Below, in pieces: positions 3,437-35,803 of a stretch of 64,000 nucleotides of DNA. Numbering within the stretch: position 1 is the first letter of the stretch; each line of letters opens with the position of its first letter. Position numbers and translations under genes: made by a program. Under the pieces are notes generated by a model. It was not told the origin of the DNA and ran no database searches. It worked only from the letters and a program-made list of their open reading frames with translations. This stretch comes from an uncultured Gammaproteobacteria bacterium. GTDB taxonomy: Bacteria > Patescibacteriota > Patescibacteriia > Magasanikbacterales > GWA2-37-8. The stretch lies in assembly GCA_964634875.1 (NCBI GenBank), contig CAZWKA010000008.1:978-64977 (forward strand), given 5' to 3'.

Positions 3437-3460
3437 CATTTTATCTATAACCCAGAGCAT

Positions 3461-9145: not shown

Positions 9146-9150
9146 ACAGA

Positions 9151-10521: not shown

Positions 10522-10530
10522 AGCAAAATA

Positions 10531-16661: not shown

Positions 16662-17468
16662 TTATTTGCCTAAAATTTGGGTTGCCCAAAAAACCGTGAC
16701 CGTAGCTGCCGTTTCGGCACGAAGCATGGTTTTGCCCAAACTAACGACTACGGCTCCTGCTGCCCGCGCTTCAGCTACTTCAGTAGGCGTAAAACCTCCC
16801 TCTGGGCCAATAAATAAAGCAATGGGCCGGCCGGCCGGTGGAACATCAATTTCGTGAAGCTCTTTTCCGTCTTGGGCAAAAAAATAAATCTGACTATCTT
16901 TAGCTTGAGCAAGTGCGCTGCTCAAGGGTACCGACTCCCTTAGCTCGGGGACAATACTTTGCTCAGACTGCTCCGCCGCCTCAGTGCTAATCCGCTTGAG
17001 CCGTTCTTCATTCAGCCCTAGTTTCACGGTACGTTCCGAAATAAACGGCGCAATAGCACTGACCCCAAGCTCGGTCGTCTTTTCAACCAGGAATTCGAAC
17101 GAATCTCTTTTTAGTATCGCAGCATATAACGTAACAGGTGTACGCGGACGCCAATCCTGAGCTTGCTCGAGAATGTGACCGATCACAACATCATCTGTCA
17201 GCGTGCCTACACGTACCAGAAACTCAGCCCCCTCACCATCGGCCAAAATTATTTTTTCACCAACGACTATTTTGAGAACGTCTTTAATATGATGGATAAC
17301 TTTTGTATCCACAACCCGTACTTCGTCCCCCGCCACTTCGAGCGGACCAATAAAATGATGGAGTTTCATACAATTATTTAATACTTCTTTTACTTCGATT
17401 AAATGTAATTGCAAACCGGTGCGCCTCATCGCGTACCCGCACCAATAAACTGCGGTGTTCGTCGACAA
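16662..17468 (-). CDS. rsmE: 16S rRNA (uracil1498-N3)-methyltransferase RsmE
   Basis: SPOUT C-terminal motifs LFIGPEGGFTPTEV and LGKTMLRAETA. The N-terminal extent is uncertain (overlaps the uvrC 3' end); a start near MKLHHFIG is likely. Confidence 0.7.
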   Translation of the reverse strand: MSTNTAVYWCGYAMRRTGLQLHLIEVKEVLNNCMKLHHFIGPLEVAGDEVRVVDTKVIHHIKDVLKIVVGEKIILADGEGAEFLVRVGTLTDDVVIGHILEQAQDWRPRTPVTLYAAILKRDSFEFLVEKTTELGVSAIAPFISERTVKLGLNEERLKRISTEAAEQSEQSIVPELRESVPLSSALAQAKDSQIYFFAQDGKELHEIDVPPAGRPIALFIGPEGGFTPTEVAEARAAGAVVVSLGKTMLRAETAATVTVFWATQILGK

Positions 17469-18651
17469 ACCCGATAAACGCGGGCGTCAAAGTACCCAAA
17501 ATAAAATCATTCCGCTTACGCTCCGGACCCTTTGCAATGCCCACAACCGGGATAGTGATCTGGCGCTCGCCTAAAACCTGGTTAACTTTATTAACTTGTG
17601 GTCGCCCCCCATCGATCAAAAATAAATCGGGTAAAGGCCACTCCGGATGATTGAGCCGTCGATTAATAACTTCCGCGAGCGAGTCAACATCGCTTTGTCC
17701 TTCAACGGTTTTAATTGTAAACTTCCGGTACTGGCTTGAGACCGGTCCGCTGTTATCAAACACGACCATGCTCCCCACTTTATCAACCTTACCCAGATTA
17801 GAAATATCATACCCTTCGATACGCAGACGTTTACTGCCAGGCTCGCTCGTCGCCGTGTCCGCATAAAAACTATTATTGAGGAGCGCGACATCATGGATGC
17901 GGTAGAGTGATTGCAATTGATTACGCAGGCGTGCCGCAGTTTCAAAATTTTGAGCTTTACTCGCGAGCTTCATTTGCTTTTCAAACTCTTTCACAACTTG
18001 TTTTTTCTTACCATCCAAAAATAAACTGAGGGGACGGATAACCAATTCCTGATACTCCTTTGCAGTGATCGTACCCATACACACCCCCAAGCACTGATCA
18101 ATCTCATAATAAAAACAAGGCCGCCCGACGCCCGGCTCACAGGTTGAAAAACAAAATAACTGACGCAATAATTTGAGCGTTGCTTTGGCATTAAGCCCTG
18201 GGAACGGACCGAAAATTTTTGTGTATTTATTTTTAATTTCAGTGCGGGTCATTGCTTCCAGGTCATGTTCGCGCGCGGTGCGCAGGGACGGAAAAATATC
18301 TTTAGTCAGCACCAAATAATTCCAACTCTTATCATCTTTACCGAGCACGTTATACTTAGGGTGGAAACGCCGGATCGACAAAGCTTCCAAAATAATTGCT
18401 TCCAGTACTGAATCAGTTTGTCGATAATCAATTTTAACAACCTCATGAATCATTTCTTCAATAGGCCGCGGCGTACGCTTCCCACGGAAGTAACTCCGGA
18501 CTCGACTGCGTAGCGAGGTGGCTTTGCCAACATAGAGCAATTCTTTGTTTTTGCCATAATACAAATAAATCCCTGGAGTGTCGGGGAGCTGGGTCGGGTC
18601 GCTCAAATACTCTTCAAGAAGTAACGCCATAGGATATGAATAGTATAACAA
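17374..18651 (-). CDS. uvrC: Excinuclease ABC subunit C, short form (GIY-YIG + Cys-rich + RNase H-like; no obvious HhH tail)
   Basis: GIY-YIG motif (PGIYLYYGKNKELLYVGKATSLRSRVRSYFR), UvrC Cys motif (RPCFYYEIDQCLGVC), and C-terminal ..IDGGRPQ... 425 aa, shorter than the usual ~600. Confidence 0.7.
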   Translation of the reverse strand: MLYYSYPMALLLEEYLSDPTQLPDTPGIYLYYGKNKELLYVGKATSLRSRVRSYFRGKRTPRPIEEMIHEVVKIDYRQTDSVLEAIILEALSIRRFHPKYNVLGKDDKSWNYLVLTKDIFPSLRTAREHDLEAMTRTEIKNKYTKIFGPFPGLNAKATLKLLRQLFCFSTCEPGVGRPCFYYEIDQCLGVCMGTITAKEYQELVIRPLSLFLDGKKKQVVKEFEKQMKLASKAQNFETAARLRNQLQSLYRIHDVALLNNSFYADTATSEPGSKRLRIEGYDISNLGKVDKVGSMVVFDNSGPVSSQYRKFTIKTVEGQSDVDSLAEVINRRLNHPEWPLPDLFLIDGGRPQVNKVNQVLGERQITIPVVGIAKGPERKRNDFILGTLTPAFIGFVDEHRSLLVRVRDEAHRFAITFNRSKRSIK

Positions 18652-18717
18652 AAAACTGGCACTTGAAAAGCAATAAGGTTCCTGGTAGGGTCAAAGCAAC
18701 TCACGAAGGAGAGCGCC

Positions 18718-19182
18718 ATGTCTCGAGCCGTCAGTATCGCAACTACCTTGACCAGCCTCCTCATTGGCGGGTGTAGCTTCACCACCCCTGCTACGGCACC
18801 GCCAAGTGATCCATTCTCGATGTGCGACGCCAACGAGGTCTGCCTCGCGATCGAGCTCCGGACACCGAACAGCACGCCGAATCGCTTCGAACAGTGTGAC
18901 AGCATCAGCGGAACAGCCATCGCGACCGATTGTGACGGTGCGACCATCAAGATGGCCGACCTCAAGATCGGGGCGCCGAAGTGTGTGATACCAGCCTACT
19001 GGACGATTCACGTCCCGCCGCTCTCCTGTCTACTCACATTCGATATCACCGCCGAAGCGTTCCTGAGCGAGAACAGCGAGTTCGTCACTGGCGTAGAACG
19101 TATTGCCGACATCGGACCAACCCAGCTCGACGGCCGGGAGCGTACCAAAATTCAGATGGTTCTTACCTCCAGCGCCAAGTAG
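18718..19182 (+). CDS. Lipoprotein (hypothetical), high-GC foreign-looking gene
   Basis: Signal peptide plus lipobox LLIGGC. SD AAGGAGAG 6 nt before the ATG, and a TTGAAA-17-TAGGGT promoter-like sequence upstream. GC about 58-60% vs ~46% in flanks. Confidence 0.55.
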   Translation: MSRAVSIATTLTSLLIGGCSFTTPATAPPSDPFSMCDANEVCLAIELRTPNSTPNRFEQCDSISGTAIATDCDGATIKMADLKIGAPKCVIPAYWTIHVPPLSCLLTFDITAEAFLSENSEFVTGVERIADIGPTQLDGRERTKIQMVLTSSAK

Positions 19183-19254
19183 CCCCCCCTGTTAGCGTGG
19201 AGCGAGAAAAATTTTCACTTCTCGCTCCACCCCCTCCCTCATACTAAAAATAAA

Positions 19255-19283
19255 AAACTCCTGACACCGGGAGTTTTTTTATT
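19255..19283 (+). terminator. Rho-independent terminator
   Basis: Hairpin AACUCCUG-ACACC-GGGAGUU followed by UUUUUUU. Confidence 0.6.
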
Positions 19284-19385
19284 CTGTTCCTCAATACTTT
19301 TTTTAAAAGTGCTAAGGAACATCGGCCAGGCGCGAATCGAATCGCGGCCTGACCGGAAACCCTGCGGGTGCAGGGTGTGGGAAAG

Positions 19386-19853
19386 TTATTTCTTGCGAAG
19401 GGCGGCGTGGTAGGCGCCGTCGACCTGCACCGTGCAGATCATCTTGACGGTGGTTGCGCCAGTATAGTAGGTGCTTCCGACTTCGATTCGCTCCGAAGCC
19501 ATCATCCCCATCTCCCCCGTGGCGAGCGAGTGGATCTGCTCACCCGCCTTGCAGATCAGAAGCCCGATCTGGTGCGGACGCGAATCGCTCGCATCACTTC
19601 CATACAGGAGAGCGAGCTTTTCGCCATCGGGGATATTCCGCACCGTGACCCACGCCAGCTGCTCGGGGATAAGCCCGGTGGCGGTAAAATCGGCGTAGTA
19701 GTAATCCTCGAGCTTAGAGTCGTAGATCGGAATCGGCTCGAGCACCTCACCGCAGCCAACGAGCGCGAGAGCGACGAAGGCGAAGGTGGCGATGCGGGCG
19801 GAGACGGAAGCAAACTTCTTGTTCATGACTTTGGACTCCTGGGACGAAAACAC
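19386..19853 (-). CDS. Lipoprotein (hypothetical), high-GC foreign-looking gene
   Basis: Signal peptide plus lipobox ALVGCG. AGGAG SD 9 nt upstream on the minus strand. High GC. No domain recognised. Confidence 0.55.
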   Translation of the reverse strand: MFSSQESKVMNKKFASVSARIATFAFVALALVGCGEVLEPIPIYDSKLEDYYYADFTATGLIPEQLAWVTVRNIPDGEKLALLYGSDASDSRPHQIGLLICKAGEQIHSLATGEMGMMASERIEVGSTYYTGATTVKMICTVQVDGAYHAALRKK

Positions 19854-20058
19854 GCGTATCCGACGCGTGACGGGTCAAGGCGATACCGTGCGCAGAGCAA
19901 AGCAAATTTCGCTCTCCTCTGCGCACAGAATACACTACACCCAATTGTAAAGAACAAAAAACCTGCGGCTTTTGCCTACAGGATGCCTCAGCATAGCACA
20001 CTTTTAGGCTTTTGTCAAGGGATACACGGAATATTTTGGCTAAAATGAGCCAAAATAC

Positions 20059-20092
20059 CAAAACGGAGCTTGGTCACAAGCTCCGTTTTAGC
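20059..20092 (-). terminator. Rho-independent terminator downstream of the uvrA paralog
   Basis: 13-bp stem AAAACGGAGCUUG..CAAGCUCCGUUUU with a U-rich tract following on the minus strand. Confidence 0.55.
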
Positions 20093-20112
20093 CAATAATC
20101 GACAACTAACCA

Positions 20113-22746
20113 CTATTTCAACATTCGTTTCAAATATTCACCCGTAAAACTGCCTTTTTTAATCGACACTTCTTCAGGCGTGCCGGTCGCAATTACCTGT
20201 CCACCGCGATCACCTCCTTCGGGTCCGAGATCAATAATCCAGTCCGCGCACTTAATGAGATCGAGGTTGTGCTCGATAACCATAACTGTATTCCCCTGCC
20301 CGACCAACCGATCAAGTACACCAATTAATTTACGCACATCATCATAATGCAAACCAGTCGTCGGCTCATCAAGCAAGTATAACGTCTTCGTTGTACCGTG
20401 CTTTGAAAGTTCTTTGGAAAGTTTGATACGCTGCGCCTCACCACCCGACAAGGTCGTAGCTGATTGACCCAGCGTCAAATAATCCAAACCGACTTCATTC
20501 AAAATTTTGAGCTTATCATTAATAAGTGGGATATCGCGGAAAAATTCTTCCGCTTCTTCCACGGTCATTGCGAGTACCTCGGCGACATTTTTGTCTTTGT
20601 ATTGTACTTGCAAAATTTCGTTAGTAAACCGCTTGCCCTTACAAACATCACAAAGTATCTCAACACTTGGCAAAAAGTGCATTTCAATTTCGAGCGTCCC
20701 GCGGCCTTCACAATTTTCACACCGTCCACCCGGCACATTGAAACTAAAGCGACCACTCTTGAAGCCGCGTAATTTTGCTTCAGCCGTAGAGGCAAATAAT
20801 TCACGAATGAGGTCAAATGCTTTGGTGTACGTTGCCGGATTCGAGCGCGGCGTGCGGCCGATCGGACTTTGATCGATCACAATCATGCGATCAATGTATT
20901 CGGTACCGGTAATTTCTTTGTGCTTACCGACTTCTTTGTTCATGTGATAAAAACGATTGGCCAACGTTTTTTCCAGCACATCATTCATGAGCGTCGATTT
21001 ACCCGAACCCGACACCCCAGTCAAACACACAAACCGGCGCAGGGGAATTTCCACGGAAATATTTTTGAGGTTATGCTCTTCCGCACCTTTGATTTTTATT
21101 TTTGGTGTTGAGGCATCTACCTTACGACGCTTCTCTGGAATTTCAATTTTCAAGTCCCCTCGTAAATATTTGCCGGTAATAGATTTTTTAGGATCACCCA
21201 GCACTTTACACCCCCAGGTCTCATTTTCATTTACTACTGCCTTGCGTTTGGTCGCAGCACTGAGTGCGCCCGACGCAATCTGCTTCCCTTGCAACAATTT
21301 CGTCAGCGGACCCGAAAACACAACGTCGCCGCCATGCTTTCCCGCTGCCGGCCCAATGTCCACAACCCAATCACTCACGAGTATCGTATCTTCATCGTGC
21401 TCAACTACAATAATCGTATTACCAATATCACACAGGCTCCGCAGTGTTTTTACCAACTGATCATTATCTTTTTGATGAAGCCCAATCGTTGGCTCATCGA
21501 GTACATAGAGCGCACCAACCAAACGCGTCCCAACCTGCGATGCGAGCCGGATACGTTGCGCTTCACCGCCCGACAAAGTCCCGGCTTTCCGATTCAAATT
21601 TAAATAATACAAACCGACATTAAACATGAACTGCAACCGGTTGCTGATTTCTCGGAAGACTGCACCGGCAATCTCCACGGTTTTGGCATCGAGCGACAAC
21701 TCGACTTCAGCAAAAAATTCACGCGCTTCACCGATTGTGAGACTCGTCACTTCCCAAATATTTTTTTCTGCCACGCGTACACTCAAAGCCGTTTTGTTCA
21801 AACGCTTGCCTTCACAGACGGTACAAATTTCGGTACTGAACAGCTCCCGGGTACCAAGGCCTGTGCAGGCTTCGCAATAGCCATACGGACTATTGAAACT
21901 AAATAAACGCGGCTCGATCTCGGGAAAACTAAATCCGTCGTTTGGGCACGAGTACTCGGTACTGTAAACATGCTCGGCCTGCCCCGGGTACGCCACTGTC
22001 GCCAAACCATTTGATAAATCTACTGCTTTATTCACTGCTTCCGTCAAACGCAGCACATCGTCATCGCCCCATTTTTTAACGAGCGGGATTTTATCAACAA
22101 CCACCTCGATCGTGTGCTTGTTGTTTTTGGACAATAAAACGCGTTCACGCAAACTTTTAATAGTTCCATCCACCCGCACTTCCAAAAAACCTGAATTATA
22201 TAAATCATAGAGCATTTGGTAATACTCGCCTTTCCGGCCGCGCACGACCGGCGAAAAAATAGTCAGGTGGTTTTCTTCGACTTTAATTTTTTTAGTTTTT
22301 TCATTCTGTAATTTCGTTTCTGCCATAATCCGATCGATCATCTGGTCGACCGTCATCTTTTCGATCTTGGTACCACAGACCGGGCAATAGGGATTCCCCA
22401 CGCGCGCAAACATAACGCGCAGGTAATCATAAATTTCCGTGATAGTCGCGACTGTCGAGCGCGGGTTGGCGCTATGCGCTTTCTGGTCAATTGAGATAGC
22501 TGGCGACAAACCCTCGATCTCATCGACATCTGGTTTTTGCATGCCACCTAAAAACTGCCGGGCATACGCCGACAAACTTTCGATGTAGCGCCTCTGGCCT
22601 TCGGCAAAAATGGTATCAAACGCAAGGCTCGATTTACCCGAACCTGACAGGCCGGTAAAAACAATCATTTTGTTACGGGGCAATTCGAGACTAATATTCT
22701 TGAGATTATGCTCCCGTGCCCCTTTAATAATAATTTTTTCTTGCAT
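20113..22746 (-). CDS. UvrA paralog (tandem ABC ATPase) apparently lacking the insertion domain
   Basis: 877 aa. N-terminus is nearly identical in pattern to UvrA ([23 protein letters not shown]), with a second Walker [11 protein letters not shown] and C-terminal ..FTGEYL. Relative to the canonical UvrA at 6353-9145, the ~105 aa between the ..CTGLG zinc module and the CxxCxGKRL motif are absent. The UvrB-binding-domain region appears present. Confidence 0.85.
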   Translation of the reverse strand: MQEKIIIKGAREHNLKNISLELPRNKMIVFTGLSGSGKSSLAFDTIFAEGQRRYIESLSAYARQFLGGMQKPDVDEIEGLSPAISIDQKAHSANPRSTVATITEIYDYLRVMFARVGNPYCPVCGTKIEKMTVDQMIDRIMAETKLQNEKTKKIKVEENHLTIFSPVVRGRKGEYYQMLYDLYNSGFLEVRVDGTIKSLRERVLLSKNNKHTIEVVVDKIPLVKKWGDDDVLRLTEAVNKAVDLSNGLATVAYPGQAEHVYSTEYSCPNDGFSFPEIEPRLFSFNSPYGYCEACTGLGTRELFSTEICTVCEGKRLNKTALSVRVAEKNIWEVTSLTIGEAREFFAEVELSLDAKTVEIAGAVFREISNRLQFMFNVGLYYLNLNRKAGTLSGGEAQRIRLASQVGTRLVGALYVLDEPTIGLHQKDNDQLVKTLRSLCDIGNTIIVVEHDEDTILVSDWVVDIGPAAGKHGGDVVFSGPLTKLLQGKQIASGALSAATKRKAVVNENETWGCKVLGDPKKSITGKYLRGDLKIEIPEKRRKVDASTPKIKIKGAEEHNLKNISVEIPLRRFVCLTGVSGSGKSTLMNDVLEKTLANRFYHMNKEVGKHKEITGTEYIDRMIVIDQSPIGRTPRSNPATYTKAFDLIRELFASTAEAKLRGFKSGRFSFNVPGGRCENCEGRGTLEIEMHFLPSVEILCDVCKGKRFTNEILQVQYKDKNVAEVLAMTVEEAEEFFRDIPLINDKLKILNEVGLDYLTLGQSATTLSGGEAQRIKLSKELSKHGTTKTLYLLDEPTTGLHYDDVRKLIGVLDRLVGQGNTVMVIEHNLDLIKCADWIIDLGPEGGDRGGQVIATGTPEEVSIKKGSFTGEYLKRMLK

Positions 22747-22861
22747 ATAAATGACAAAAAGACCCGAAAATACAGGCCAATGGATGGAATAAAGGAAGAA
22801 AAAGGACTACTCGTAAGTGTACGGGAGACATTTTTATTTGTCAACTAAGCCAAAAAAGTGC

Positions 22862-22890
22862 TTGACAAAACCCTTTTTTTGTGCTATACT
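22862..22890 (+). promoter_or_regulatory. Sigma70-like promoter (TTGACA-17-TATACT)
   Basis: TTGACA 22862-22867 and TATACT 22885-22890. It drives the small ORF starting at 22920. Confidence 0.55.
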
Positions 22891-22919
22891 TTACTTGGAT
22901 AGTATCAACTTTTAATTAT

Positions 22920-23222
22920 ATGCTTGAAGGAAAACCTCGCCTCGACCTCATTACCCAAAAAGCCGCTATTTTAAAGGAAAAAACTGCTTCTATCGGCCTT
23001 GACCATGTCACCGACGCTGCAACTGCCGACAAGATTTTAGCTACTCACCAGCGCGATATGACGACTCTCGCCAACGAACAAGCTATCCAGGAGGCTCGCG
23101 CTTTTAATGACAAAAATAAAAAAATGGCTACGAGTGAACTGGCCTCTGCTACCCAACAAGAGATCCAGGCTTTGCTCGAACAAATTGATAAGATTCCTCC
23201 TAATACTCCATCGCTGAATTAA
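22920..23222 (+). CDS. Small coiled-coil-like protein (hypothetical)
   Basis: 100 aa from the first ATG after the predicted TSS (the track ORF start at 22881 lies inside the -10 box). Followed directly by a terminator. No domain recognised. Confidence 0.4.
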   Translation: MLEGKPRLDLITQKAAILKEKTASIGLDHVTDAATADKILATHQRDMTTLANEQAIQEARAFNDKNKKMATSELASATQQEIQALLEQIDKIPPNTPSLN

Positions 23223-23228
23223 ATTTTC

Positions 23229-23254
23229 GACCGCCCTTTCGGGCGGTTTTTTTA
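23229..23254 (+). terminator. Rho-independent terminator
   Basis: CCGCCC-UUUC-GGGCGG followed by UUUUUUU. Confidence 0.6.
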
Positions 23255-23298
23255 TCCCTGAAAAAGCATTGACTTTTATACCTAGTTATGCTAGCTTA

Positions 23299-23340
23299 AA
23301 ATGATGCTGATTCCTGCAAGGCATCAGCATTTTTTTATAC
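23299..23340. terminator. Second bidirectional terminator-like hairpin
   Basis: AAAAU-AUGCUGAU-(11 nt loop)-AUCAGCAU-UUUUUUU, an 8-bp perfect stem with an A-run upstream and a T-run downstream. Confidence 0.4.
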
Positions 23341-23610
23341 GAAGTCAGTTCTTTAACGAGTTCATTGACAAGTTACACCAAAATCACCTGTTCACCTAAG
23401 AGGCCGAATTGCGCTTTTTAGACTGCTCACACCTAAAAAGTGTTTTCGGTCTCTTAAGGTAACTCAAAAGAAAAATACGGAGGAACATCACCGAAAATTT
23501 CCCACAGCTTCGGCTCGAGGAAGACTTCGGAAAAAAAATAGATCATGCAACAAACACCTTTCACACGTTCAACCAACAACGGCAGGTAACCGCCCCTCGA
23601 AGGCAATGGA

Positions 23611-26079
23611 GTGACTCCCATGGCAGCACGCGGACACCCCACAATTGGAGCCCGGTTCGGAGCATTCTACGCGCTCCTGTGTGCGCTCGTCGCGCGAGCG
23701 AACGAGCGACCCGCCATCCCGGACGACGACAAGTTCCCGCCCGGCGTCCCCTACTCCGTCGGCAACGAGCTAGCGGAGCGCTTCAGCTTCTACGGCTTCA
23801 AGACGATCTTGAAGCAGTACCTGACGGCCCTCCTCCTCAACTTCGTCAACGAGGCGATGCTCCCCGCATCGGTCGTCGCCGACGCGATGGTGAAGAGCAC
23901 GGAGTACGTGCACCTCTTCAACGCGGCCGTCTACTCCTTCCCGCTGATCGGCGCCCAGATCGCTGATCGCTACCTCGGCAAGTACCGTACGATCTACTAC
24001 GTGTCGATCGGGTACGTGATCGGCCACGCCATCCTCGGTGTCGCCACTCACTTCGGCACCATCCACCTGTACGAGGCGGCCAAGATCTCCTTCGGCCTCG
24101 GCCTCGGCCTCATCGCCGTCAGCGCCGGCGGCATCAAGCCGTGCGCCTCCTCGAACCTCGGCGACCAGTTCCCGCCCCTCAGCAAGCTCATCCTAATCGC
24201 CTTCTCGCTGTTCTACTTCGCCATCAACTACGGCTCGCTCGGCGCCACGATCCTGACGCCGATCATGCTCGACAAGTTCGGGCCCGAGGTCGCTTTCGGC
24301 CTGCCCGGCATCGCGATGGCGATCGCCACGATCGTCTTCCGCATCGGCGAGAAGAAGTTCATCAAGGCGCCGCCCACCCCGGGCGGCAAGCTCGGGCTCC
24401 TCGATAGCCTCGTCACGACGCTGCTCCTGTCCCCGCTGTTCGCCACCGTCATCGGCTACTTCGTGCTCTGGCAGAAGGACGCCGAGATTGCCGAGAAGGC
24501 ATTCAACAAGGCTAACGAGGTGGCGATCCGCGCCGCCGAGGCTCTCGGCCAGACACCGCCGGAGTTCCACATCACGTGGAGCTTCGTCCAGAACTACCTC
24601 ACCAGCCACTGGTGGCTCTTCGCCCTGACCGCCGCCGCCATCACGCTCGGCTCCATCATCTTCATTGTCCGTCAGCGGCGGCAGCCCGACAATACGAGCT
24701 TCCTTCCCATCCTCATCTGGTCGCTGAAGAACCGACATCTGCGCAAGCAGGGCGACGACTTCTTCGATCCGGCCCGCAATAAGTTCGGCAAGGAAGCCGG
24801 TGACGGCCCCCCGGCCGTGCTCCGCATCATGGTGGTCTTCGGGATGGTCGCCGTGTTCTGGGCGCTCTTCGACCAGCACTCCTCGACCTGGGTCGACCAG
24901 GCCAAGATGATGGCTCTCCACCTTATCGTCCCCGCGTGGCTGGGGTACTGGACCCTCGCCACGTTCACCATCATCATCCTCTACGTGGGCATCGGGCTGT
25001 TCTGCCGCCTGGCCAACCGCCCGCCCAAGCGCCTGACCACCTACACCATCCTCGGTCTGCTCGCCTTCTCCGGCTTCCTCTCCGGCGGCCTCGACCTCTT
25101 CGGCCCGCCGATCGGCAACCGGGTCATCCCGGTGATCGTGAAGACGGACACGCCCACGAACCTGAACGAGGCGAACACCGTCATCAAGAAGAAGCTCCGC
25201 GAGGAAGTCAACGTCTCGGTGATCGTCGTCCGTTCGTCGGTCTACAACCCCAAGAAGGAGAAGACCACTCTCACGACGGCCGACTTCCGCCGTGCCACTC
25301 CGCTGGACGCGCTGATCGCGACCATCGGCCTTCCGGACGCCATGACCCCCGCCAACCTCGCGGAGGCCGCGCGTCTCGGGGTCGAGCTGAAGAACTACTC
25401 GAGCGTCAGCGCCTTCCAGGCCGACATCGAGGCCCGGCGTACCGTCAAGCTCAAGGAGCAACGGCCGCACACCCTCACGCTCATGATTTCCCCGTCGCAA
25501 CCCCAGGCGGCCAACCCGCTCTTCGTCATGATCATTATCCCGCTCCTCACCCTCATCCTCGGCTTCATCGCCACGCGCTACGGGATTGTGATCCGGCCGC
25601 TCTACATCATGGCCGTAGGCATGTTCCTCACTGCCTTCTCGTTCGTGATCGCCGCTCTCGTGCAGCGCCACGTGCAGGAGTCAGGTGAGGGCGTGGTCCA
25701 CGTGCTGTGGCAGCTGCCGCAGTACTTCAGCATGACGGTGGCCGAAGTGATGGTATCGATCACCGGCCTCGCCTTCGCCTACACCCAGGCCCCGCGCGCC
25801 ATGAAGGCCACCGTGACCGGCTTCTTCAACTTCACCGTGGCGCTCGGCAACCTGATCGTGGCCTTCCTCGCCCCGCTCGAAAAGCTCAGCCTCGCCTACT
25901 TCTTCTGGGTGTTCGCTGGCATCCAGGGTTTCGCCGCAATCATCTTCGCCATCCTCGTCTACTACTACGTGCGGCGGCTCAAGACGGACGAGCGGAAGGC
26001 CGAGAAGGCCACCCTGAGCGCCACCCCGTTCATCATCGACACCATACAGGCGCTCGAGGGCGAGAAGAAGTTGCCCTGA
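23611..26079 (+). CDS. POT/PTR2-family proton-dependent oligopeptide transporter, unusually long (822 aa) with a large hydrophilic insert
   Basis: PTR2 signature motifs GNELAERFSFYG, GGIKPCASSNLGDQF, FSLFYFAINYGSL and FWALFDQ. About 66% GC and SD GGAG upstream. A ~150-200 aa non-membrane segment (about nt 25130-25500) lies between late TM helices. Many overlapping ORFs on both strands are artefacts of the high GC. Confidence 0.8.
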   Translation: MTPMAARGHPTIGARFGAFYALLCALVARANERPAIPDDDKFPPGVPYSVGNELAERFSFYGFKTILKQYLTALLLNFVNEAMLPASVVADAMVKSTEYVHLFNAAVYSFPLIGAQIADRYLGKYRTIYYVSIGYVIGHAILGVATHFGTIHLYEAAKISFGLGLGLIAVSAGGIKPCASSNLGDQFPPLSKLILIAFSLFYFAINYGSLGATILTPIMLDKFGPEVAFGLPGIAMAIATIVFRIGEKKFIKAPPTPGGKLGLLDSLVTTLLLSPLFATVIGYFVLWQKDAEIAEKAFNKANEVAIRAAEALGQTPPEFHITWSFVQNYLTSHWWLFALTAAAITLGSIIFIVRQRRQPDNTSFLPILIWSLKNRHLRKQGDDFFDPARNKFGKEAGDGPPAVLRIMVVFGMVAVFWALFDQHSSTWVDQAKMMALHLIVPAWLGYWTLATFTIIILYVGIGLFCRLANRPPKRLTTYTILGLLAFSGFLSGGLDLFGPPIGNRVIPVIVKTDTPTNLNEANTVIKKKLREEVNVSVIVVRSSVYNPKKEKTTLTTADFRRATPLDALIATIGLPDAMTPANLAEAARLGVELKNYSSVSAFQADIEARRTVKLKEQRPHTLTLMISPSQPQAANPLFVMIIIPLLTLILGFIATRYGIVIRPLYIMAVGMFLTAFSFVIAALVQRHVQESGEGVVHVLWQLPQYFSMTVAEVMVSITGLAFAYTQAPRAMKATVTGFFNFTVALGNLIVAFLAPLEKLSLAYFFWVFAGIQGFAAIIFAILVYYYVRRLKTDERKAEKATLSATPFIIDTIQALEGEKKLP

Positions 26080-26270
26080 CCCCCAACCCAGGTGACCCGG
26101 CTGCCCCGCATGTTGTGCGGGGCAGCCGGCCCTTCCCTTTCTCCGCTTCACCGCGGCACTAGGGAAGAGGCAAGTGTAACTTGTCGCCTTCTTATCTGCT
26201 TCAGTCTGGAGCCAATAAGAAGACCCGAAATTATCCCGCCGAGCGGCGAGTATTTTATTTTCCTCAACCG

Positions 26271-26299
26271 TTGACATCACCGTAAAATCATGCTAACTT
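26271..26299 (+). promoter_or_regulatory. Sigma70-like promoter (TTGACA-17-TAACTT)
   Basis: TTGACA 26271-26276 and TAACTT 26294-26299, upstream of the second transporter gene. Confidence 0.4.
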
Positions 26300-26432
26300 C
26301 CTAAGTTAAGTTTTTTAAGGTACACCTTAACTATTCTCTTTGAAAACGTTAGCCGCTTGAAAACGTTTCATATCCTCGACCTGAGGATTGTGGGACACAA
26401 CAAGCTACTAGCAACACGCATGGAGGTTGAAC

Positions 26433-27827
26433 GTGAACAACAACCGACCCGACCTGTCGCGAGCACTGCGAAGCGCTCTTCAGGAGATCATCGCCCCGTT
26501 CCGCGATTTCATCCATGCACCGCGGGCGCTCTGGGGCGTGAACATCCCCTACTTCTTAGAAGGGCTCGTCTACTTTGGCATCCTGACTGTCCTCACGAAA
26601 TTCCTGTCCGAAAATGTCGGCCTTGGCGACATTACCGGCGGCTGGGTCGTAGGAACATTTACCGGCCTGATCACTGGGACAATGTTTCTCTTGGGCGGAA
26701 CGGCTGACCGTTGGGGCGTGCGCAAAGCGATTATCATCTCGCTGACGCTCATCTTATTAGGACGGATCATGCTCAGCTTGGGCGAACTGATGCACCTGGG
26801 AAACGGCTTGTTCGGCCCGCTCTTTAACCTCAGCTGCGCCGGACTCTTCATTGTTGCCATTGGGTACGGGATGTACCAGCCTGCGGCCTACGCCGGCGTG
26901 CGCCAGTTCACGAACGAAAAGACGGCGGCGATGGGTTACGCAATGGTCTACGCCCTCATGAACTTGGGTGCGTTTGGTTCGGGAATCATCTCCCCAATCA
27001 TCCGCCTCATCAGCAAGAACGCTTTTCCACCGAACGGCATCACGGGCGTTTTCTGGACCTACGTCGTGATCACCGGACTCGCGCTGATGCTGACCTTTGT
27101 CCTCCTGACACCAAAAACGGTACGGGCAAGCACGGCAACGAAGCTCGTTTCGGTCACGTCGCCAGTGTCTGAAAAGCCGCCACCTTTTTTCTCGAAGCGT
27201 TGGTTCAACGAGCACCCGCTCACGGACCTTCGGTTCACCTTTTTCATCTTCATCCTGATCCCGGTGCAGACCCTGTTCGCCCACAACTGGCTCACACTCC
27301 CCCTCTACATTGAGCGAGCCTACGCGGGCAATGCGAACTGGGTCAGCCAGAACTTCGAGTTCTTTGGCAACCTCAACCCGCTTCTCATCTTCATCCTGAC
27401 ACCGCTCGTCGCGGCTCTGACCGCAAAAGTGCCGGTCTTCAAGATGATGATCATCGGGACGCTCATAATGGCCGCACCGACCTTCCTCCTATGTCTCGGC
27501 CCCAAGCCCTGGGTCTTATTCATCTACATCTTCACGATGTCGGTTGGCGAAGCGCTGTGGCAACCCCGGTTCCTGCAGTACGCTTCCGAGATCGCGCCTG
27601 AAGGTCGGGTCGGCATGTATCAGGGCGTTGCCCAGCTTCCCTGGTTCCTCACCAAACTGGTGACTGCCGTGTACTCAGGCTGGTTCCTGAAGCACTACTG
27701 CCCCGCGACCGGCCCCAAGCACACCGAGGCCATGTGGTTCATCTACGGCCTTATCGCTCTGGTGAGCCCGATCGGCCTCTACCTGGCTCGCGGCTGGGTT
27801 GGCCGGTCGATTAACACGAAGCAGTAG
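26433..27827 (+). CDS. Second POT-like MFS transporter (12-TM, ~465 aa)
   Basis: GGTADRWGVRKAI matches the POT GGxxADxxxGxRKxI motif, and the hydropathy pattern is MFS-like. Start taken at the GTG 6 nt after a perfect GGAGG SD (the track uses TTG at 26427). GC about 58%. Confidence 0.65.
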   Translation: MNNNRPDLSRALRSALQEIIAPFRDFIHAPRALWGVNIPYFLEGLVYFGILTVLTKFLSENVGLGDITGGWVVGTFTGLITGTMFLLGGTADRWGVRKAIIISLTLILLGRIMLSLGELMHLGNGLFGPLFNLSCAGLFIVAIGYGMYQPAAYAGVRQFTNEKTAAMGYAMVYALMNLGAFGSGIISPIIRLISKNAFPPNGITGVFWTYVVITGLALMLTFVLLTPKTVRASTATKLVSVTSPVSEKPPPFFSKRWFNEHPLTDLRFTFFIFILIPVQTLFAHNWLTLPLYIERAYAGNANWVSQNFEFFGNLNPLLIFILTPLVAALTAKVPVFKMMIIGTLIMAAPTFLLCLGPKPWVLFIYIFTMSVGEALWQPRFLQYASEIAPEGRVGMYQGVAQLPWFLTKLVTAVYSGWFLKHYCPATGPKHTEAMWFIYGLIALVSPIGLYLARGWVGRSINTKQ

Positions 27828-27905
27828 ACCCTCCCCGCGACGATCTGCACCACACAGAACGTCGCGTATCTCCACTAGAAAGTTTTACAAATTTTTAGTG
27901 GAGAA

Positions 27906-27939
27906 AAAATATCCTGGCTACACTCAGGATATTTTTTAT
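27906..27939 (+). terminator. Rho-independent terminator after the transporter pair
   Basis: AAUAUCCUG-(loop)-CAGGAUAUU followed by UUUUUU. Confidence 0.55.
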
Positions 27940-27940
27940 T

Positions 27941-27972
27941 ACAAAAACACCCTCTACATAATCGAGGGTGCT
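27941..27972 (-). terminator. Rho-independent terminator of uvrB (minus strand)
   Basis: CACCCUC-UACAUAAUC-GAGGGUG, with a U-rich run following on the minus strand. Confidence 0.5.
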
Positions 27973-27982
27973 GTACACTATT

Positions 27983-30076
27983 TTACTTCTTTTTCGCCGG
28001 TCGTCCTTTTTTACTTTTCTCCACTTCCCCACTCGACTTCTGCCGTGCGGTCAATTCACGAATCTCATCACGCAGTATCGCCGCCAGCTCGAATTCAAGT
28101 CCTTTGGCCGCATCCTTCATCTGCGCTTCTTTGTCTTTAATAATCACGCTGAGCGGCCGATCGTCCCCAAGCGTATCAAGGTTCGCAAGTTCGGCGCGGC
28201 GACGTTTATGTTCCTTTGTATTTCCACCGGGTGAAGTTTCGCTAATACCAAACTCTTCCAAAATATTACGAATTGTTTTTTGAATTGTTTTTGGAGTAAT
28301 ACCATGTTCCTCATTATACGCCAGCTGAATTTTACGGCGACGATTGGTTTCGGCAATCGCACGCTCGATCGAACCAGTGCTGTGGTCAGCATACAGCACC
28401 ACCTGCCCATTCACATTACGCGCCGCGCGGCCGATCGTCTGGATCAAACTCGTTTCACTGCGCAAAAACCCTTCTTTATCAGCGTCAAGAATTGCAACCA
28501 GCGACACTTCTGGCATGTCGAGTCCTTCACGCAAAAGATTAACTCCAACCAAAACATCAATCTTGCCTTGACGCAACTCCATGATTACCGTAATACGATC
28601 AAGCGTCTGGACATCGCTGTGCAAAAATTTTACTTTCACTTTCTTCTCTTCCAAAAATTGCGTCAGGTCTTCAGCCATGCGCTTCGTCAGTGTAGTGACC
28701 AGCACGCGCTCTTTGGCCGCAATGCGTTCATCAATCCGGATCATCAGGTCTTCGATCTGCGAAAGGCCGTTGTCAGCTTTGCTCGGCGTGATCGGGCGAA
28801 TAATAACTTCCGGATCAATTAAACCTGTCGGACGGACGACTTGCTCCACCACTTGCTTACTTTCACTAATTTCGTATTCGGTCGGGGTTGCCGAAACATA
28901 CACCACCTGGTCAACTAATTTTTCAAATTCTTCGTAGCGCAGCGGTCGGTTATCACGCGCGCTCGGCAACCTAAACCCGTGTTCGACCAACGTGTCTTTA
29001 CGTGCTCGGTCGCCATTATACATAGCACGCACCTGCGGCACTGTTACGTGCGACTCATCAATAATGGTTAAGAAATTTTTTGCCCCATGCTTGAAATAAT
29101 CGAGGAGCGTAAACGACGGTTCACCTTCGGACCGACCTTCAAAATGACGGGAATAATTTTCAATACCGTTGCAATACCCAATATTTTTAATCAGTTCCAA
29201 ATCATAACTCACCCGACGCTTCAAACGGTCGCGTTCCAGTAATTTTCCTTGCCGGTCAAAAAGCGCTAACTGTTGTTCAAGCTCATCTTTGATACGGACG
29301 AATGCACGTTCCCGCGCTTCCTCGCCAACCACATAATGTTTTGCCGGAAAAAGCCACACATCTTCTTGCTCGCGTTTAATTTTGCGCGTCAGCGGATCAA
29401 CCTGCTCAATACGATCGATGTGCGCGCTGATCTCGAAACGATAAATCATCTCTTCGTTCACCGGCATAATCTCGAATACCTGCCCCTGCATCCGAAAGGT
29501 ACCGCGGCGCATGTCTGCGGTTGTACGTTCGAATTGCATGCCAATGAGCTGTTCCATCATGCCGCGCCGGTCGAGATTGTCGCCCACCCGCAGATGCAAA
29601 ACGTCTTTTTCATAGGCCGCCGGCGAACCCAAACCATAGATTGCCGAAACTGACGCCACAATAATAACATCACGCCGCGTCAACAAGGCCTGTGTACACG
29701 CATGGCGCAGACGATCTATTTCTTGGTTGATCTGCGCTTCTTTTTCAATATACGTATCACTGGTAGGAATATACGCTTCCGGCTGATAGTAGTCGTAGTA
29801 GCTCACAAAATACTCGACGACGTTCTCGGGAAAAAAATCACGGAATTCGTTACAGAGCTGGGCCGCCAGCGTCTTGTTGTGCGCGATCACCAGCGTCGGC
29901 ATCTGGACACGCTCAATCACGTTCGCCATTGTGAACGTTTTACCCGAACCGGTAACCCCAAGCAGGGTTTGCTTTTTAAACCCTTCGGCAAGACCTTGAG
30001 TCAACTGATCAATGGCTTTAGGCTGATCACCAGCTGGTTTGTATTGTGAAACGATTGAAAACTTCATACAACCCAT
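27983..30076 (-). CDS. uvrB: Excinuclease ABC subunit B
   Basis: Helicase motif I GVTGSGKTFTMANVI, a beta-hairpin region, and a C-terminal UVR domain (..ELAAILRDEIRELTAR..). True start probably the MKFSIV.. Met at 30067. Confidence 0.95.
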   Translation of the reverse strand: MGCMKFSIVSQYKPAGDQPKAIDQLTQGLAEGFKKQTLLGVTGSGKTFTMANVIERVQMPTLVIAHNKTLAAQLCNEFRDFFPENVVEYFVSYYDYYQPEAYIPTSDTYIEKEAQINQEIDRLRHACTQALLTRRDVIIVASVSAIYGLGSPAAYEKDVLHLRVGDNLDRRGMMEQLIGMQFERTTADMRRGTFRMQGQVFEIMPVNEEMIYRFEISAHIDRIEQVDPLTRKIKREQEDVWLFPAKHYVVGEEARERAFVRIKDELEQQLALFDRQGKLLERDRLKRRVSYDLELIKNIGYCNGIENYSRHFEGRSEGEPSFTLLDYFKHGAKNFLTIIDESHVTVPQVRAMYNGDRARKDTLVEHGFRLPSARDNRPLRYEEFEKLVDQVVYVSATPTEYEISESKQVVEQVVRPTGLIDPEVIIRPITPSKADNGLSQIEDLMIRIDERIAAKERVLVTTLTKRMAEDLTQFLEEKKVKVKFLHSDVQTLDRITVIMELRQGKIDVLVGVNLLREGLDMPEVSLVAILDADKEGFLRSETSLIQTIGRAARNVNGQVVLYADHSTGSIERAIAETNRRRKIQLAYNEEHGITPKTIQKTIRNILEEFGISETSPGGNTKEHKRRRAELANLDTLGDDRPLSVIIKDKEAQMKDAAKGLEFELAAILRDEIRELTARQKSSGEVEKSKKGRPAKKK

Positions 30077-31295: not shown

Positions 31296-32321
31296 TTATT
31301 TCTCAGGCGGCAAATAAACTGCATCGTCGTACACGTTGACCAGAGGGAAAATTTTTACCTCATTAACACTCAGGTTTGATCCGAAACTCCGCAGGTCGAT
31401 ATTTTTTGAGGCTAGTGACGTAAAATTATCAAGCGATAACGGCAGGAGGCCGACCAGGTTCTGATCCAAATACAGTCCCACATAAAACCGGGCAGTTTTA
31501 TAACTGTAGGCACTTTGGTTTGTTAGGGTGAAACGAATTATCTCAGCGTTAGCGCCACTCTCATCAAACTGGGGAATAAACTCAAAATTGCTCACCAAAA
31601 AATTAAGGCGTTCCCGCTGCCAGGTTTCTGGATCCAAAAACTCACGGTTCGACAAACGCTTCCAAGCAATATTATCAATCGTTAGGACTGCGCTATCCGG
31701 ATAGGTGTCAGCACTTAACCCCAAATAAGCCACCGGGCGGTTCTCGCGCGGCAAAAGCGTGGTCGTTTGGGACGGCGTCTTAGTTCCATTAAAACTAAAA
31801 TAATAATCGAAGGTGACCAAAAACCGCGGGTTGGAATTAACGACGTCAGCTACCAAATCGTACTTACCAACTCCGCCCGAGTACACTGCTGTACTCAGTA
31901 CTTCAAGCGGCTTAGCGGCAAAACGACTATTGAGTACGGTATAATTTTCAAAACTCGTTAAACCCCGGTCGACCTCAGCGCTTTCTTGTAAACCAAATAT
32001 AAGATACTTCCCCAGCGCAAACAACGAAAAGAAAGCTGTCCCAGCTGCCAGCGCCATAAGCGTCCCCACCAAAATCCGATACAACAGGAGCCGGTGACGG
32101 ACATACCAAAAACCATACTTTAGCTCTTGGCCAGTAAACTCACCGCTCGGATCAACATACTTCTCATAGTTCACTTTCTTGGCAGCAACGACTGGTGCGC
32201 GTCCTGTCGGGGAAGTGGAATGGTTGTTGGCATTATAAATATTGAGCACAAAATATGTAGGATATGATACTCCTAAGTATAGCCCAAAATTTCCATTTTG
32301 ACCACCACCCTTGACAGCCAC
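31296..32321 (-). CDS. Membrane-anchored hypothetical protein (true N-terminus uncertain)
   Basis: The track ORF runs to 32747, but its first ~128 codons overlap the rnpB gene and promoter on the opposite strand. The real start is therefore downstream: a candidate GTG at 32321, or the Met at 32057 just before the TM helix. The large C-terminal extracytoplasmic domain has no recognised family. Confidence 0.4.
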   Translation of the reverse strand: MAVKGGGQNGNFGLYLGVSYPTYFVLNIYNANNHSTSPTGRAPVVAAKKVNYEKYVDPSGEFTGQELKYGFWYVRHRLLLYRILVGTLMALAAGTAFFSLFALGKYLIFGLQESAEVDRGLTSFENYTVLNSRFAAKPLEVLSTAVYSGGVGKYDLVADVVNSNPRFLVTFDYYFSFNGTKTPSQTTTLLPRENRPVAYLGLSADTYPDSAVLTIDNIAWKRLSNREFLDPETWQRERLNFLVSNFEFIPQFDESGANAEIIRFTLTNQSAYSYKTARFYVGLYLDQNLVGLLPLSLDNFTSLASKNIDLRSFGSNLSVNEVKIFPLVNVYDDAVYLPPEK

Positions 32322-32325
32322 CTGA

Positions 32326-32354
32326 TTGACAAGAACGATGAAATATCGTATACT
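32326..32354 (+). promoter_or_regulatory. Sigma70-like promoter (TTGACA-17-TATACT) for rnpB
   Basis: TTGACA 32326-32331 and TATACT 32349-32354, about 8 nt before the P1 helix 5' strand. Confidence 0.55.
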
Positions 32355-32361
32355 ATTAACT

Positions 32362-32828
32362 CTATTACTGGTAATCGCCGGGCAAAAAGGCTCGGAGGAA
32401 AGTCCGAACACCCTTGTTTTTAACAAGACAATGGCAGTGGGTAACCCCCACCCCCCGACCTGTGAAGTATCGGGGAGGGACAGTGGCACAGAGACAATAC
32501 TAGCCCCGTCCACTTCGGTGGATGGGACCAAAGGTGAAAAGTGTATGGAGGTTCTGGTTCTCGAGACCAAAGCTACCATACTCGCCCTGGCTGTGAAGCC
32601 AGTGGCAGTGCTAAACCCTGCCTGGTGCAAGAGCAGCGTGCCGCGAAGCGTCAGAGAGGCGCTTTGCCTGGCGCGAAAAGTTCGCTCGCTTGGCTTGCCC
32701 AAATTCTCACGAATGAAGGCAGCCTGATTGCAACAGTAATGCTGCAACTAGAAAAATGATTATCTTCCCAATCTGTCTGCCGATAGGCAAGCCCGGTTGG
32801 GAAACAAAATTCGGCTTATAGTAATAGC
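32362..32828 (+). ncRNA. rnpB: RNase P RNA (bacterial type A-like), ~467 nt
   Basis: P4 5' strand GGAGGAAAGUCCGAACAC. P4 3' strand ACAAAAUUCGGCUUAUAG pairs with it, including the characteristic bulge. P1 pairing CUAUUACU (32362-32369) with AGUAAUAG (32820-32827). Internal matches to conserved stretches (GGGUAACCCC, AAGGUGAAAAGUG, UAAACCCUGCCUGGUGCAAGAGCA). Promoter upstream and terminator downstream. Confidence 0.8.
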
Positions 32829-32830
32829 GC

Positions 32831-32855
32831 AAAACCTTCCGCAAGGAAGGTTTTG
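32831..32855 (+). terminator. Rho-independent terminator of rnpB
   Basis: CCUUCC-GCAA-GGAAGG followed by UUUU. Confidence 0.55.
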
Positions 32856-35485: not shown

Positions 35486-35544
35486 AAGAAGAAAGGTCGC
35501 GCACCGAAGTGGCGACCTAAGAAGGAAGTGTGGCAGAAAAACCG

Positions 35545-35745
35545 TCAGTACAGGCCATCTGGCCGGGGGGAAGGACGCTCTCGCTCAGCATCCAGTTGGT
35601 CGGCGAGCTGGGCAGGGGTGAGCTGTTCGTTATTGAACAGATCTCTGCCCAAAAGCTCAGCTGGCTTCGGGACTACCTCCGCCACTACCACGACACCGGG
35701 ATGTCGGTCAGCGAGCGCGCAATCATCGCCAGAACCTTGCTCCAT
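35545..35745 (-). CDS. Tiny ORF (66 aa) in a short high-GC patch, strong SD (hypothetical)
   Basis: GGAGG 5 nt upstream of the ATG on the minus strand. Local GC about 60% vs ~45% in flanks. No domain recognised; a longer ORF on the + strand overlaps the same patch. Confidence 0.2.
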   Translation of the reverse strand: MEQGSGDDCALADRHPGVVVVAEVVPKPAELLGRDLFNNEQLTPAQLADQLDAERERPSPRPDGLY

Positions 35746-35803
35746 GAAACCTCCTCTAATATATCAGTAAACCACCTCTTAATCCTATCGTCAACCGAGT
35801 ACT

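Follow-up and report, generated by a model that had tools for sequence, protein, structure and literature searches.

An insertion-domain-less UvrA in a conserved uvrB-uvrA-uvrC neighbourhood of Patescibacteria, with high-GC genes in its gaps

We analysed a 64,000-nucleotide stretch of DNA (the window) from contig CAZWKA010000008.1 of assembly GCA_964634875.1, placed by GTDB in the Magasanikbacterales of the Patescibacteriota. It carries the nucleotide excision repair (NER) genes uvrC, uvrA, and uvrB and a second uvrA, all four on the minus strand in a window with a GC content of ~46%. A preliminary description made from the letters of the window had reported uvrC, an 877-aa UvrA, and uvrB on one strand, separated by two high-GC patches, and a 930-aa UvrA some distance away; Pfam and NCBIfam matches and base composition bear out the first arrangement, and the 930-aa gene is confirmed at its position (Table 1). 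We refer to the two small lipoprotein genes in the uvrA-uvrC gap (lp1 and lp2) as island 1 and to the two transporter genes in the uvrB-uvrA gap (POT and MFS) as island 2. We consider it likely that the locus as a whole is an old, phylum-wide gene neighbourhood in which foreign cargo has been swapped, and in which the 877-aa UvrA, a protein without the insertion domain (ID), acts as the orthodox NER damage sensor.

The neighbourhood was assessed across the phylum. One genome per GTDB species was scanned, which gave 80 loci, 71 of them from Patescibacteria (L001-L069, L074, and L075), and synteny was counted by tblastn with the window proteins over these 71 and six loci from other assemblies (L081-L086), wherever a locus had enough flank. 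Of 47 Patescibacteria loci, 39 have uvrB on the strand of the cluster uvrA and upstream of it; uvrC lies downstream of uvrA in 37 of 42, and both are in place in 22 of 32. The order uvrB→uvrA→uvrC recurs in Magasanikbacteria, Paceibacteria, Wolfe-, Nomura-, Uhr-, and Komeilibacteria, and in Minisyncoccus archaeiphilus. Gaps between the cluster uvr genes measure 0 to 5.6 kb, and their GC content is mostly at or below that of the backbone. The uvrB-uvrA spacing is 0-60 bp in L010, L017, and L055, and in Magasanikbacteria at 72-75% UvrA identity this gap is typically occupied by a DUF218/SanA-like gene of native GC content and by a small lipoprotein gene ("LLGAGC"). Because gaps with native-GC genes are found across the phylum, the gaps predate the high-GC genes of the window.

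We read uvrB→uvrA→uvrC as an ancient phylum-wide neighbourhood, laid out on one strand as putatively separate transcription units. In the window, opposite-strand genes and predicted terminator-like hairpins lie between all three genes rather than a single uvrBAC unit, and it is the hairpins after uvrA, lp1, POT, and MFS/uvrB that make the uvr genes look separately transcribed. In the Firmicutes uvrBA operon, uvrB sits immediately upstream of uvrA on one strand; the window differs in that uvrC is linked too and that opposite-strand genes and predicted terminators split the genes, which do not appear to form an operon. Two loci illustrate the range of the arrangement. In Minisyncoccus archaeiphilus PMX.108 (L010; NZ_AP038758.1, 1298531-1321080), uvrB directly abuts the gene for an ID-less UvrA of 853 aa; 3.2 kb downstream follows a uvrC of the short form. 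In a 75% relative (L093; GCA_964596525.1, 641240-663969), the 10 kb upstream of the ID-less uvrA contain no uvrB, a uracil-DNA glycosylase gene occupying its place, while uvrC stays 3.3 kb downstream.

The 877-aa protein scores 1270 against the NCBIfam UvrA equivalog model, above the cut-off of 1147, and aligns to solved UvrAs in three blocks with ~90-110 residues skipped. It gives a Pfam match to UvrA_inter, the UvrB-binding domain (3.8e-22), and no match to PF17755, the insertion domain. The 930-aa family served to build a hidden Markov model of the ID. This model matches none of the 69 Patescibacteria cluster UvrAs of the genome scan and none of 120 homologs of the 877-aa protein; among homologs of the 930-aa protein, it matches 120 of 120. 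When aligned to E. coli UvrA (L090), the deletion appears as a clean gap at about residues 290-400. Among the homologs listed, members of the ID-less family are 848-960 aa long.

Apart from the ID, the family retains functional residues of UvrA. The Walker A lysines K37 and K646 are kept in 61/61 proteins, and the LSGGEAQR signature is retained; at the UvrB/Mfd interface, R216 is kept in 61/61 and E222 in 56/61; G502 and the signature-II DNA-contact arginines R712, R722, R724, and R730 are likewise retained. The cysteines of Zn2 (C291/C294/C308/C311, the second CxxC following the first after 13 residues) and Zn3 (C676/C679/C699/C702) are present in the 877-aa protein, and Zn1 reads CPVC plus CPND (residues 267-270), with Asp as the fourth ligand. 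An AlphaFold2 model of the protein (predicted local distance difference test (pLDDT) 83.8, predicted template-modeling (pTM) score 0.73) finds its best match in the UvrA of the UvrA-UvrB complex 3uwx (TM 0.87), the class II structures 2vf7 and 7sh1 scoring lower. The ID-less UvrA is 54% identical to E. coli UvrA and the ID-bearing 930-aa protein 48%, and the 73-96% conservation of the ID-less proteins in the homolog search points to strong purifying selection. The 877-aa protein thus appears class I-like in every tested feature save the ID, its three-zinc status being read from the sequence.

Two features vary within the ID-less family. The second Zn1 half is CPxD (CPND, CPDD, or CPKD) in most members, for example L003, L013, L017, L029, L039, and L060, and a CxxC is kept there in L010 and L047. 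Residues ~487-520 form a variable insert of ~30 aa between the ATPase halves, with a pLDDT of 52-58. Compared with the class I UvrAs of E. coli, G. stearothermophilus, T. maritima, and M. tuberculosis, the 877-aa protein shares the two ABC modules, the UvrB-binding domain, and Zn2/Zn3; it differs by the loss of the ~110-residue ID, the 13-residue Zn2 linker, the Asp as fourth Zn1 ligand found in many members, and the ~30-aa insert. Class II UvrAs (D. radiodurans UvrA2, DrrC, and Ecm16) are without Zn1 and the UvrB-binding domain and keep the ID (PMC9328131). They resemble the present case as an extra UvrA copy in one genome that has lost domains relative to class I. However, the 877-aa protein is the reverse, having kept UvrA_inter and lost the ID, and the 930-aa protein keeps a remodelled UvrB-binding domain; with UvrA_inter in both, neither window UvrA falls in class II.

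The segment missing from the 877-aa protein is the one removed from two laboratory constructs, E. coli UvrA Δ290-400 (Manelyte et al. 2010, PMC3025350) and B. stearothermophilus UvrA ΔID (the latter as cited there). The published mutants still bind UvrB (PMC3025350). E. coli UvrA Δ290-400 incises a 50-bp damaged duplex and supports Mfd-dependent, transcription-coupled repair (TCR); on plasmid DNA, its discrimination of damage is poor (PMC3025350). Unlike these engineered proteins, the ID-less UvrAs of Patescibacteria are natural, fixed phylum-wide, and sometimes accompanied by a second, ID-bearing paralog. Since published deletions of the ID, and of the (HhH)2 region of UvrC described below, keep activity, it is plausible that the ID-less UvrA is a working UvrB loader and NER partner of UvrB and UvrC. 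It is the phylum-wide UvrA of the cluster, and we infer that it is the orthodox NER damage sensor of Patescibacteria.

The 930-aa protein scores 1290 against the same equivalog model and has the full class I domain set. Its homologs at 67-94% identity come from Magasanikbacteria and other Patescibacteria, and homologs of both window UvrAs are found in Candidatus Magasanikbacteria and other Patescibacteria. At the position of E. coli R216 its family carries D or N (D in the window copy). In the UvrB-binding domain, RKGE has become KGKVD and the KHTIEVVVD motif is lost; the ABC signature GEAQR has become GEVTR, and G502 is replaced by S. All members of the paralog family share these replacements, and the 930-aa protein lacks the canonical UvrB-interface residues and ABC signature. 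In a coarse neighbor-joining tree (795 ungapped columns, two outgroups), the ID-less clade groups with E. coli and Planctomycetota UvrA, and the ID-bearing paralogs stand on a separate long branch. We rejected a recent UvrA duplication on account of that branch and of the 52% identity between the two window proteins.

At least seven genomes carry an ID-less and an ID-bearing UvrA on one and the same contig. The distance between the two genes is ~11 kb in a 96% relative and ~117 kb in a 75% relative, whose contig measures 1.34 Mb; the presence of two UvrAs is thus conserved, their linkage not. The preliminary description had regarded two UvrA genes plus uvrB and uvrC within 30 kb as unusual for a small genome and had called the 877-aa protein the paralog. 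Our results revise both points: the pair is a conserved Magasanikbacteria trait, with the 11-kb linkage confined to the closest relative, and the labels are to be exchanged, the 877-aa protein being the phylum-wide cluster UvrA and the 930-aa protein the divergent extra copy. The 930-aa copy appears to be an accessory, divergent long-branch paralog conserved in Magasanikbacteria. It could be a specialised sensor, a heterodimer partner, or a global-repair sensor beside an ID-less UvrA that serves TCR.

The roles could also be assigned the other way round, with the 930-aa protein as the working NER UvrA and the ID-less protein as a paralog that is degenerate or acts outside NER, in the manner of class II. 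Such an assignment would fit the equivalog score of the 930-aa protein and its full class I domain set, as well as the contribution of the ID to damage discrimination in E. coli (PMC3025350). However, the ID-less protein passes the same cut-off, it sits between uvrB and uvrC phylum-wide, and its sequence is 73-96% conserved. It also keeps R216, E222, and the arginines that contact DNA; in the 930-aa family, by contrast, R216 is lost and the UvrB-binding domain remodelled. We regard this exchange of roles as unlikely.

In its own surroundings, the ID-bearing UvrA adjoins a DsbA/Thioredoxin_4 gene in all three genomes examined (window 6353-11286, L091, and L092). A gene resembling a type IV secretion system pilin lies between the two in 2 of the 3. 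In L092, a DUF218 gene then follows, of the same family as the gene in the uvrB-uvrA gap of other Magasanikbacteria.

The UvrC encoded in the cluster is short as well. Along the C-terminal half of T. maritima UvrC (2nrt), its match ends at chain residue 162 of 220; the window protein finishes directly behind its RNase H-like domain, and a Pfam search for the tandem helix-hairpin-helix region, (HhH)2, gave no HhH match in the window protein. Complete cluster-linked UvrCs of Patescibacteria measure 385-516 aa in 44/44 cases, and UvrC appears to be without the C-terminal (HhH)2 throughout the phylum. A D. radiodurans UvrC construct lacking the same region binds UvrB and DNA and carries out dual incision with a weaker 5' cut (PMC10085695). 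The two share the missing (HhH)2, and the construct still makes the 3' cut; the Patescibacteria form is natural and phylum-wide. It also differs from the Cho nuclease in keeping the RNase H-like 5' nuclease domain. No mfd or photolyase gene is present in the 64-kb window.

A broader proposal, which we advance tentatively and hold at somewhat less than even chances, is that Patescibacteria as a whole carry out NER with an ID-less UvrA and an (HhH)2-less UvrC, and that the two UvrAs of Magasanikbacteria are complementary and split the work. In Magasanikbacteria the ID-less protein would keep the UvrB-binding surface, and the ID-bearing one would keep the ID on a protein with a remodelled UvrB-binding surface. 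One possible split is between repair guided by Mfd and RNA polymerase and a global search for damage, by analogy to the phenotype of E. coli UvrA Δ290-400. Another would be a heterodimer of the ID-less and ID-bearing proteins. Our full-text literature searches turned up neither an account of an ID-less UvrA family nor one of UvrA in the Candidate Phyla Radiation (CPR).

The second part of the explanation concerns the cargo. The two patches contain the only four strongly high-GC3 genes in 64 kb (GC3, GC content at third codon positions): lp1, lp2, POT, and MFS lie at z = 4.2 to 7.6 from a backbone GC3 of 0.472 ± 0.059 (n = 50 other open reading frames (ORFs)). The native membrane proteins RodA, Nramp, MgtE, and FtsH of the window have ordinary GC3, which argues against a membrane-protein effect, and we rejected that explanation of the high GC3. 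Two randomly placed islands would flank one single gene with a chance of ~4%, and would hit these two particular junctions with a chance of ~0.07%; both estimates are post hoc. The sole other mildly GC3-rich ORF of the window (35530-35874, plus strand, 114 aa, GC3 0.66) lies between glycosyltransferase genes; it overlaps neighbouring ORFs and may not be a gene.

Exact-protein look-up brought in closer relatives (L081, an NCBI metagenome-assembled genome; L082, from Logan; L083, from JGI; and L084-L086). Their cluster UvrA is identical to that of the window at 96% of protein positions (~82% of DNA) in L081/L082, 89% in L083, and about 80-82% in L084, L085, and L086. In each of the six, the uvrB-uvrA gap holds an opposite-strand gene of a peptide-transporter family, and the content differs: OPT699 + POT799 in L081/L082, POT453 in L083, OPT603 in L084, POT437 in L085, and MFS550 in L086, beside POT822 + MFS466 in the window. 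These transporters, those of the window and of five relatives from four other lineages, share 21-40% identity with one another and are non-orthologous, against 80-96% for UvrA. The window POT is 30% identical to the POT of L081 at the same site; its MFS is 22% identical to that of L086, and an OPT-family gene stands in its place in L081/L082. Slot genes have a GC3 of 0.77-0.92 in the genomes of ~47-50% GC, and of 0.32 over a backbone of 0.22 in the 36% GC genome L085. The islands thus combine deviant composition with patchy presence among relatives, the cargo differing in every one. These data indicate that the uvrB-uvrA gap is probably a recurrent slot for cargo turnover that works without att sites or mobility genes.

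For the window POT, an identical copy was found only in L089, an independent Logan assembly; the next homologs, at 49-54% identity, belong to Planctomycetota/Pirellulales, Myxococcota, and Verrucomicrobiota. The two nearest full-length homologs lie on contigs of uniformly 68% GC and have a GC3 of 0.90-0.97. Island 2 was most probably acquired horizontally from a donor lineage of high GC content once the lineages of the window and of L081 had split, and has undergone hardly any amelioration; with GC3 values of 0.92 and 0.78, its codon composition still agrees with that of high-GC donors, which suggests a recent acquisition. A small native-GC gene (22920-23222) lies between uvrA and island 2 and forms the native edge of the latter; its 100-aa ORF is called identically in L089 and has fast-evolving counterparts at the same position in L081, L083, and L086.

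Island 1 has a different history. lp1 has orthologs at 79% (L082) and 50% (L083) identity with a coding-type substitution pattern, and lp2 has one at 76% in L081/L082, with differences concentrated at third codon positions. Across L081-L083, the orthologs of the two genes are 50-79% identical and keep their high GC3, and island 1 is older than island 2. A search of 1.84 billion representatives returned two real homolog clusters for lp1, which is clade-restricted, and with just these two no donor was identified; neither Pfam nor Rfam matched it. The preliminary description had assigned to island 1 a 226-aa ORF at 19368-20048 on the plus strand. We rejected this ORF because relatives conserve the lp2 frame (19386-19853, minus) instead. 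Long ORFs on both strands had also made a structured RNA a candidate for island 1, which was rejected since Rfam gave nothing above the gathering score and the codon-position pattern is a coding one.

Several observations weigh against the explanation favoured here. For POT, no donor closer than ~50% identity was found, and both the direction and the date of its transfer are read from composition alone. lp1 has no homolog outside the clade among the representatives searched. The third-position divergence of lp1 and lp2 orthologs is 0.29-0.32, compared with 0.45-0.47 for backbone genes, and plain old horizontal transfer followed by amelioration does not fully explain this low divergence together with the high GC3. 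The uvr gaps are not uniquely permissive either, since L086 has an M15 peptidase gene inserted between rodA and uvrB, and L085 six genes between uvrC and rsmE; what recurs among the relatives is peptide transporters in one particular slot. Finally, the role of the ID-less UvrA as UvrB loader is deduced from comparison with known proteins.

An alternative is a native origin of the high GC3, for example through GC-biased gene conversion in a recombination-prone segment or through synonymous-site selection on envelope genes. The clade restriction of lp1, the persistence of high GC3 in the orthologs of L081-L083, and the reduced third-position divergence are all in line with it. It accounts poorly for the rest: uvrA877, between the two patches, has a normal GC3 of 0.49, as do the native membrane proteins; the nearest POT relatives belong to high-GC phyla; the transporters are non-orthologous between close relatives; and the slot gene of L085 has a GC3 near that of its own backbone. 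A native origin is accordingly quite unlikely in our judgement.

The preliminary description had suggested that foreign DNA landed in every intergenic gap of the cluster at an insertion-prone or recombination-prone region. In its strong form, a contiguous uvrC-uvrA-uvrB unit would have been split twice by foreign DNA through site-specific, att-type hotspots. Both patches do lie exactly in the two gaps, and the cargo of the uvrB-uvrA gap does differ from relative to relative. The part of the suggestion that stands is therefore that the patches are compositionally foreign and that the uvrB-uvrA gap is a site of recurrent turnover. The part that fails is the splitting of a unit. The three genes are not ancestrally contiguous, the relatives having the same order with native-GC genes in the gaps phylum-wide, which comes close to the outcome named beforehand as contradicting insertion; a native gene lies inside the uvrB-uvrA gap; and the uvr genes have terminators of their own. 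A search of both island edges for direct or inverted repeats and att-like sites, as had been proposed, returned chance-level repeats of 10-17 nt and terminator hairpins only. Pfam and NCBIfam detected no integrase, recombinase, or transposase in the gaps, whose contents are two lipoproteins, a small native ORF, POT, and MFS, and no tRNA lies at an island edge, the nearest tRNA genes being at 3364 and 60487. The islands thus show neither recombinase genes nor the flanking repeats or tRNA of a mobile element, and we judge splitting at such hotspots to be very unlikely.

The explanation that we prefer, an old neighbourhood with exchanged cargo, would run as follows. The two uvr gaps would always have been open, holding small lineage-variable genes. 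In the clade with a cluster UvrA at least 80% identical to that of the window, the uvrB-uvrA gap would have become a slot for opposite-strand POT, MFS, or OPT transporters swapped by horizontal transfer, and the uvrA-uvrC gap would have come to hold fast-evolving surface lipoproteins. In the species-level lineage of the window, the slot would have been filled by the POT + MFS pair. Integration most likely took place between strongly conserved core genes, by recombination or by illegitimate insertion, in an organism that naturally imports DNA; a site-specific mobile element is disfavoured as the route. Replacement-type flexible genomic islands between core genes are a concept from marine and enteric pangenomes. 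The slot resembles them in its fixed position, its differing cargo of one class, and its lack of mobility genes; it differs in being tiny (1-2 genes) and in carrying nutrient transporters rather than surface polysaccharide genes.

Sharp composition jumps in metagenome-derived sequences might suggest that assembly or binning had joined DNA of a high-GC organism to the window. Such a chimeric origin of the patches has a negligible probability and was rejected, because L089 is 100% identical over window 20839-28649, spanning both island 2 junctions, and analogous arrangements were recovered independently in L081, L082, L083, L084, and L086.

Table 1. Genes and predicted signals of the uvr region, in window coordinates
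Feature	Position	Strand	Evidence or description
Second UvrA, 930 aa, ID-bearing	6353-9145	minus	Pfam UvrA_inter + UvrA_DNA-bind (insertion domain)
uvrC, short form, 425 aa (about 418-425)	17374-18651	minus	Pfam/NCBIfam: GIY-YIG, UVR, RNase H-like; no HhH
lp1, small lipoprotein gene, lipobox LIGG/C (slash, cleavage site)	18718-19182	plus	Translation; GC3 0.72
Hairpin terminators between lp1 and lp2	19197-19230 and 19252-19279		
lp2, small lipoprotein gene, lipobox LVG/C, convergent with lp1	19386-19853	minus	Translation; GC3 0.78
Intrinsic-terminator-like hairpin 3' of 877-aa uvrA	20057-20092	minus	13-nt perfect stem; 16-pair stem then T-run
Cluster-embedded UvrA, 877 aa, without insertion domain	20113-22746	minus	Pfam UvrA_inter, no UvrA_DNA-bind
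Divergent promoter pair (predicted)	22816-22890		
Small native-GC gene, 100 aa, divergent from uvrA	22920-23222	plus	Promoter-like site, terminator 23229-23248
POT/PTR2-family peptide transporter, 819-822 aa	23611-26079	plus	Pfam PTR2 4.7e-65; GC 0.64, GC3 0.92
GC-rich terminator hairpin 3' of POT	26097-26129		
MFS transporter, 464-466 aa, second gene of island 2	26427-27827	plus	Pfam MFS_1 3e-23; GC3 0.78
Two hairpins between convergent MFS and uvrB, bidirectional-terminator-like	27869-27937		Inverted repeats
uvrB, 697 aa, canonical domain set	27983-30076	minus	Pfam/NCBIfam

Some further observations were made in the window and the scan. Next to uvrC, the mechanically called ORF of an rsmE-like methyltransferase (16662-17468, minus) overlaps the uvrC end by 95 nt. 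Relatives call a 233-aa rsmE-like product starting 4-5 nt after uvrC, so that translation probably begins downstream of the TTG at 17468. A tRNA-Ile with anticodon TAT (UAU) lies at 3364-3437 (plus); this is an uncommon bacterial route to read AUA and may mean that the lysidine (TilS) route is absent. Directly 3' of it, ~320 bp (3438-3757, plus) have a GC content raised to 0.57 and include a dubious 116-aa ORF overlapping the tRNA; Rfam gave nothing above threshold for this segment. A class A RNase P RNA at 32359-32834 (plus; 138.6 bits) measures 476 nt against a model of 367 positions and so carries insertions. The RNA runs into the start of the mechanically called ORF 31296-32747 (minus), so that the true start of that ORF must lie further in. 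Eight Verrucomicrobiota loci of the scan (L071-L073 and L076-L080) contain UvrA-like ORFs of 1,384-1,995 aa, double-length tandem UvrAs consistent with the 1,809-aa type of NCBIfam PRK00635.

The island story is ordinary for CPR bacteria and of modest interest. It would mean that ultra-small symbionts auxotrophic for amino acids renew their peptide uptake through foreign transporters in a fixed slot, without mobile-element machinery. The minimal UvrA and UvrC with a complementary second UvrA are the more novel lead. For annotators, the results carry a warning that "UvrA paralog" calls in CPR genomes are reversed. If true, the complementary degeneration of the two UvrAs would be a natural experiment on the purpose of the UvrA insertion domain. 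Arguments on what the ID contributes to damage discrimination have relied on laboratory deletions, whose results conflict; here a whole phylum-level lineage has fixed that very deletion in the UvrA encoded beside uvrB and uvrC. With a strain designation and a complete genome record, M. archaeiphilus PMX.108 looks like an organism in which the question of the ID is open to experiment.

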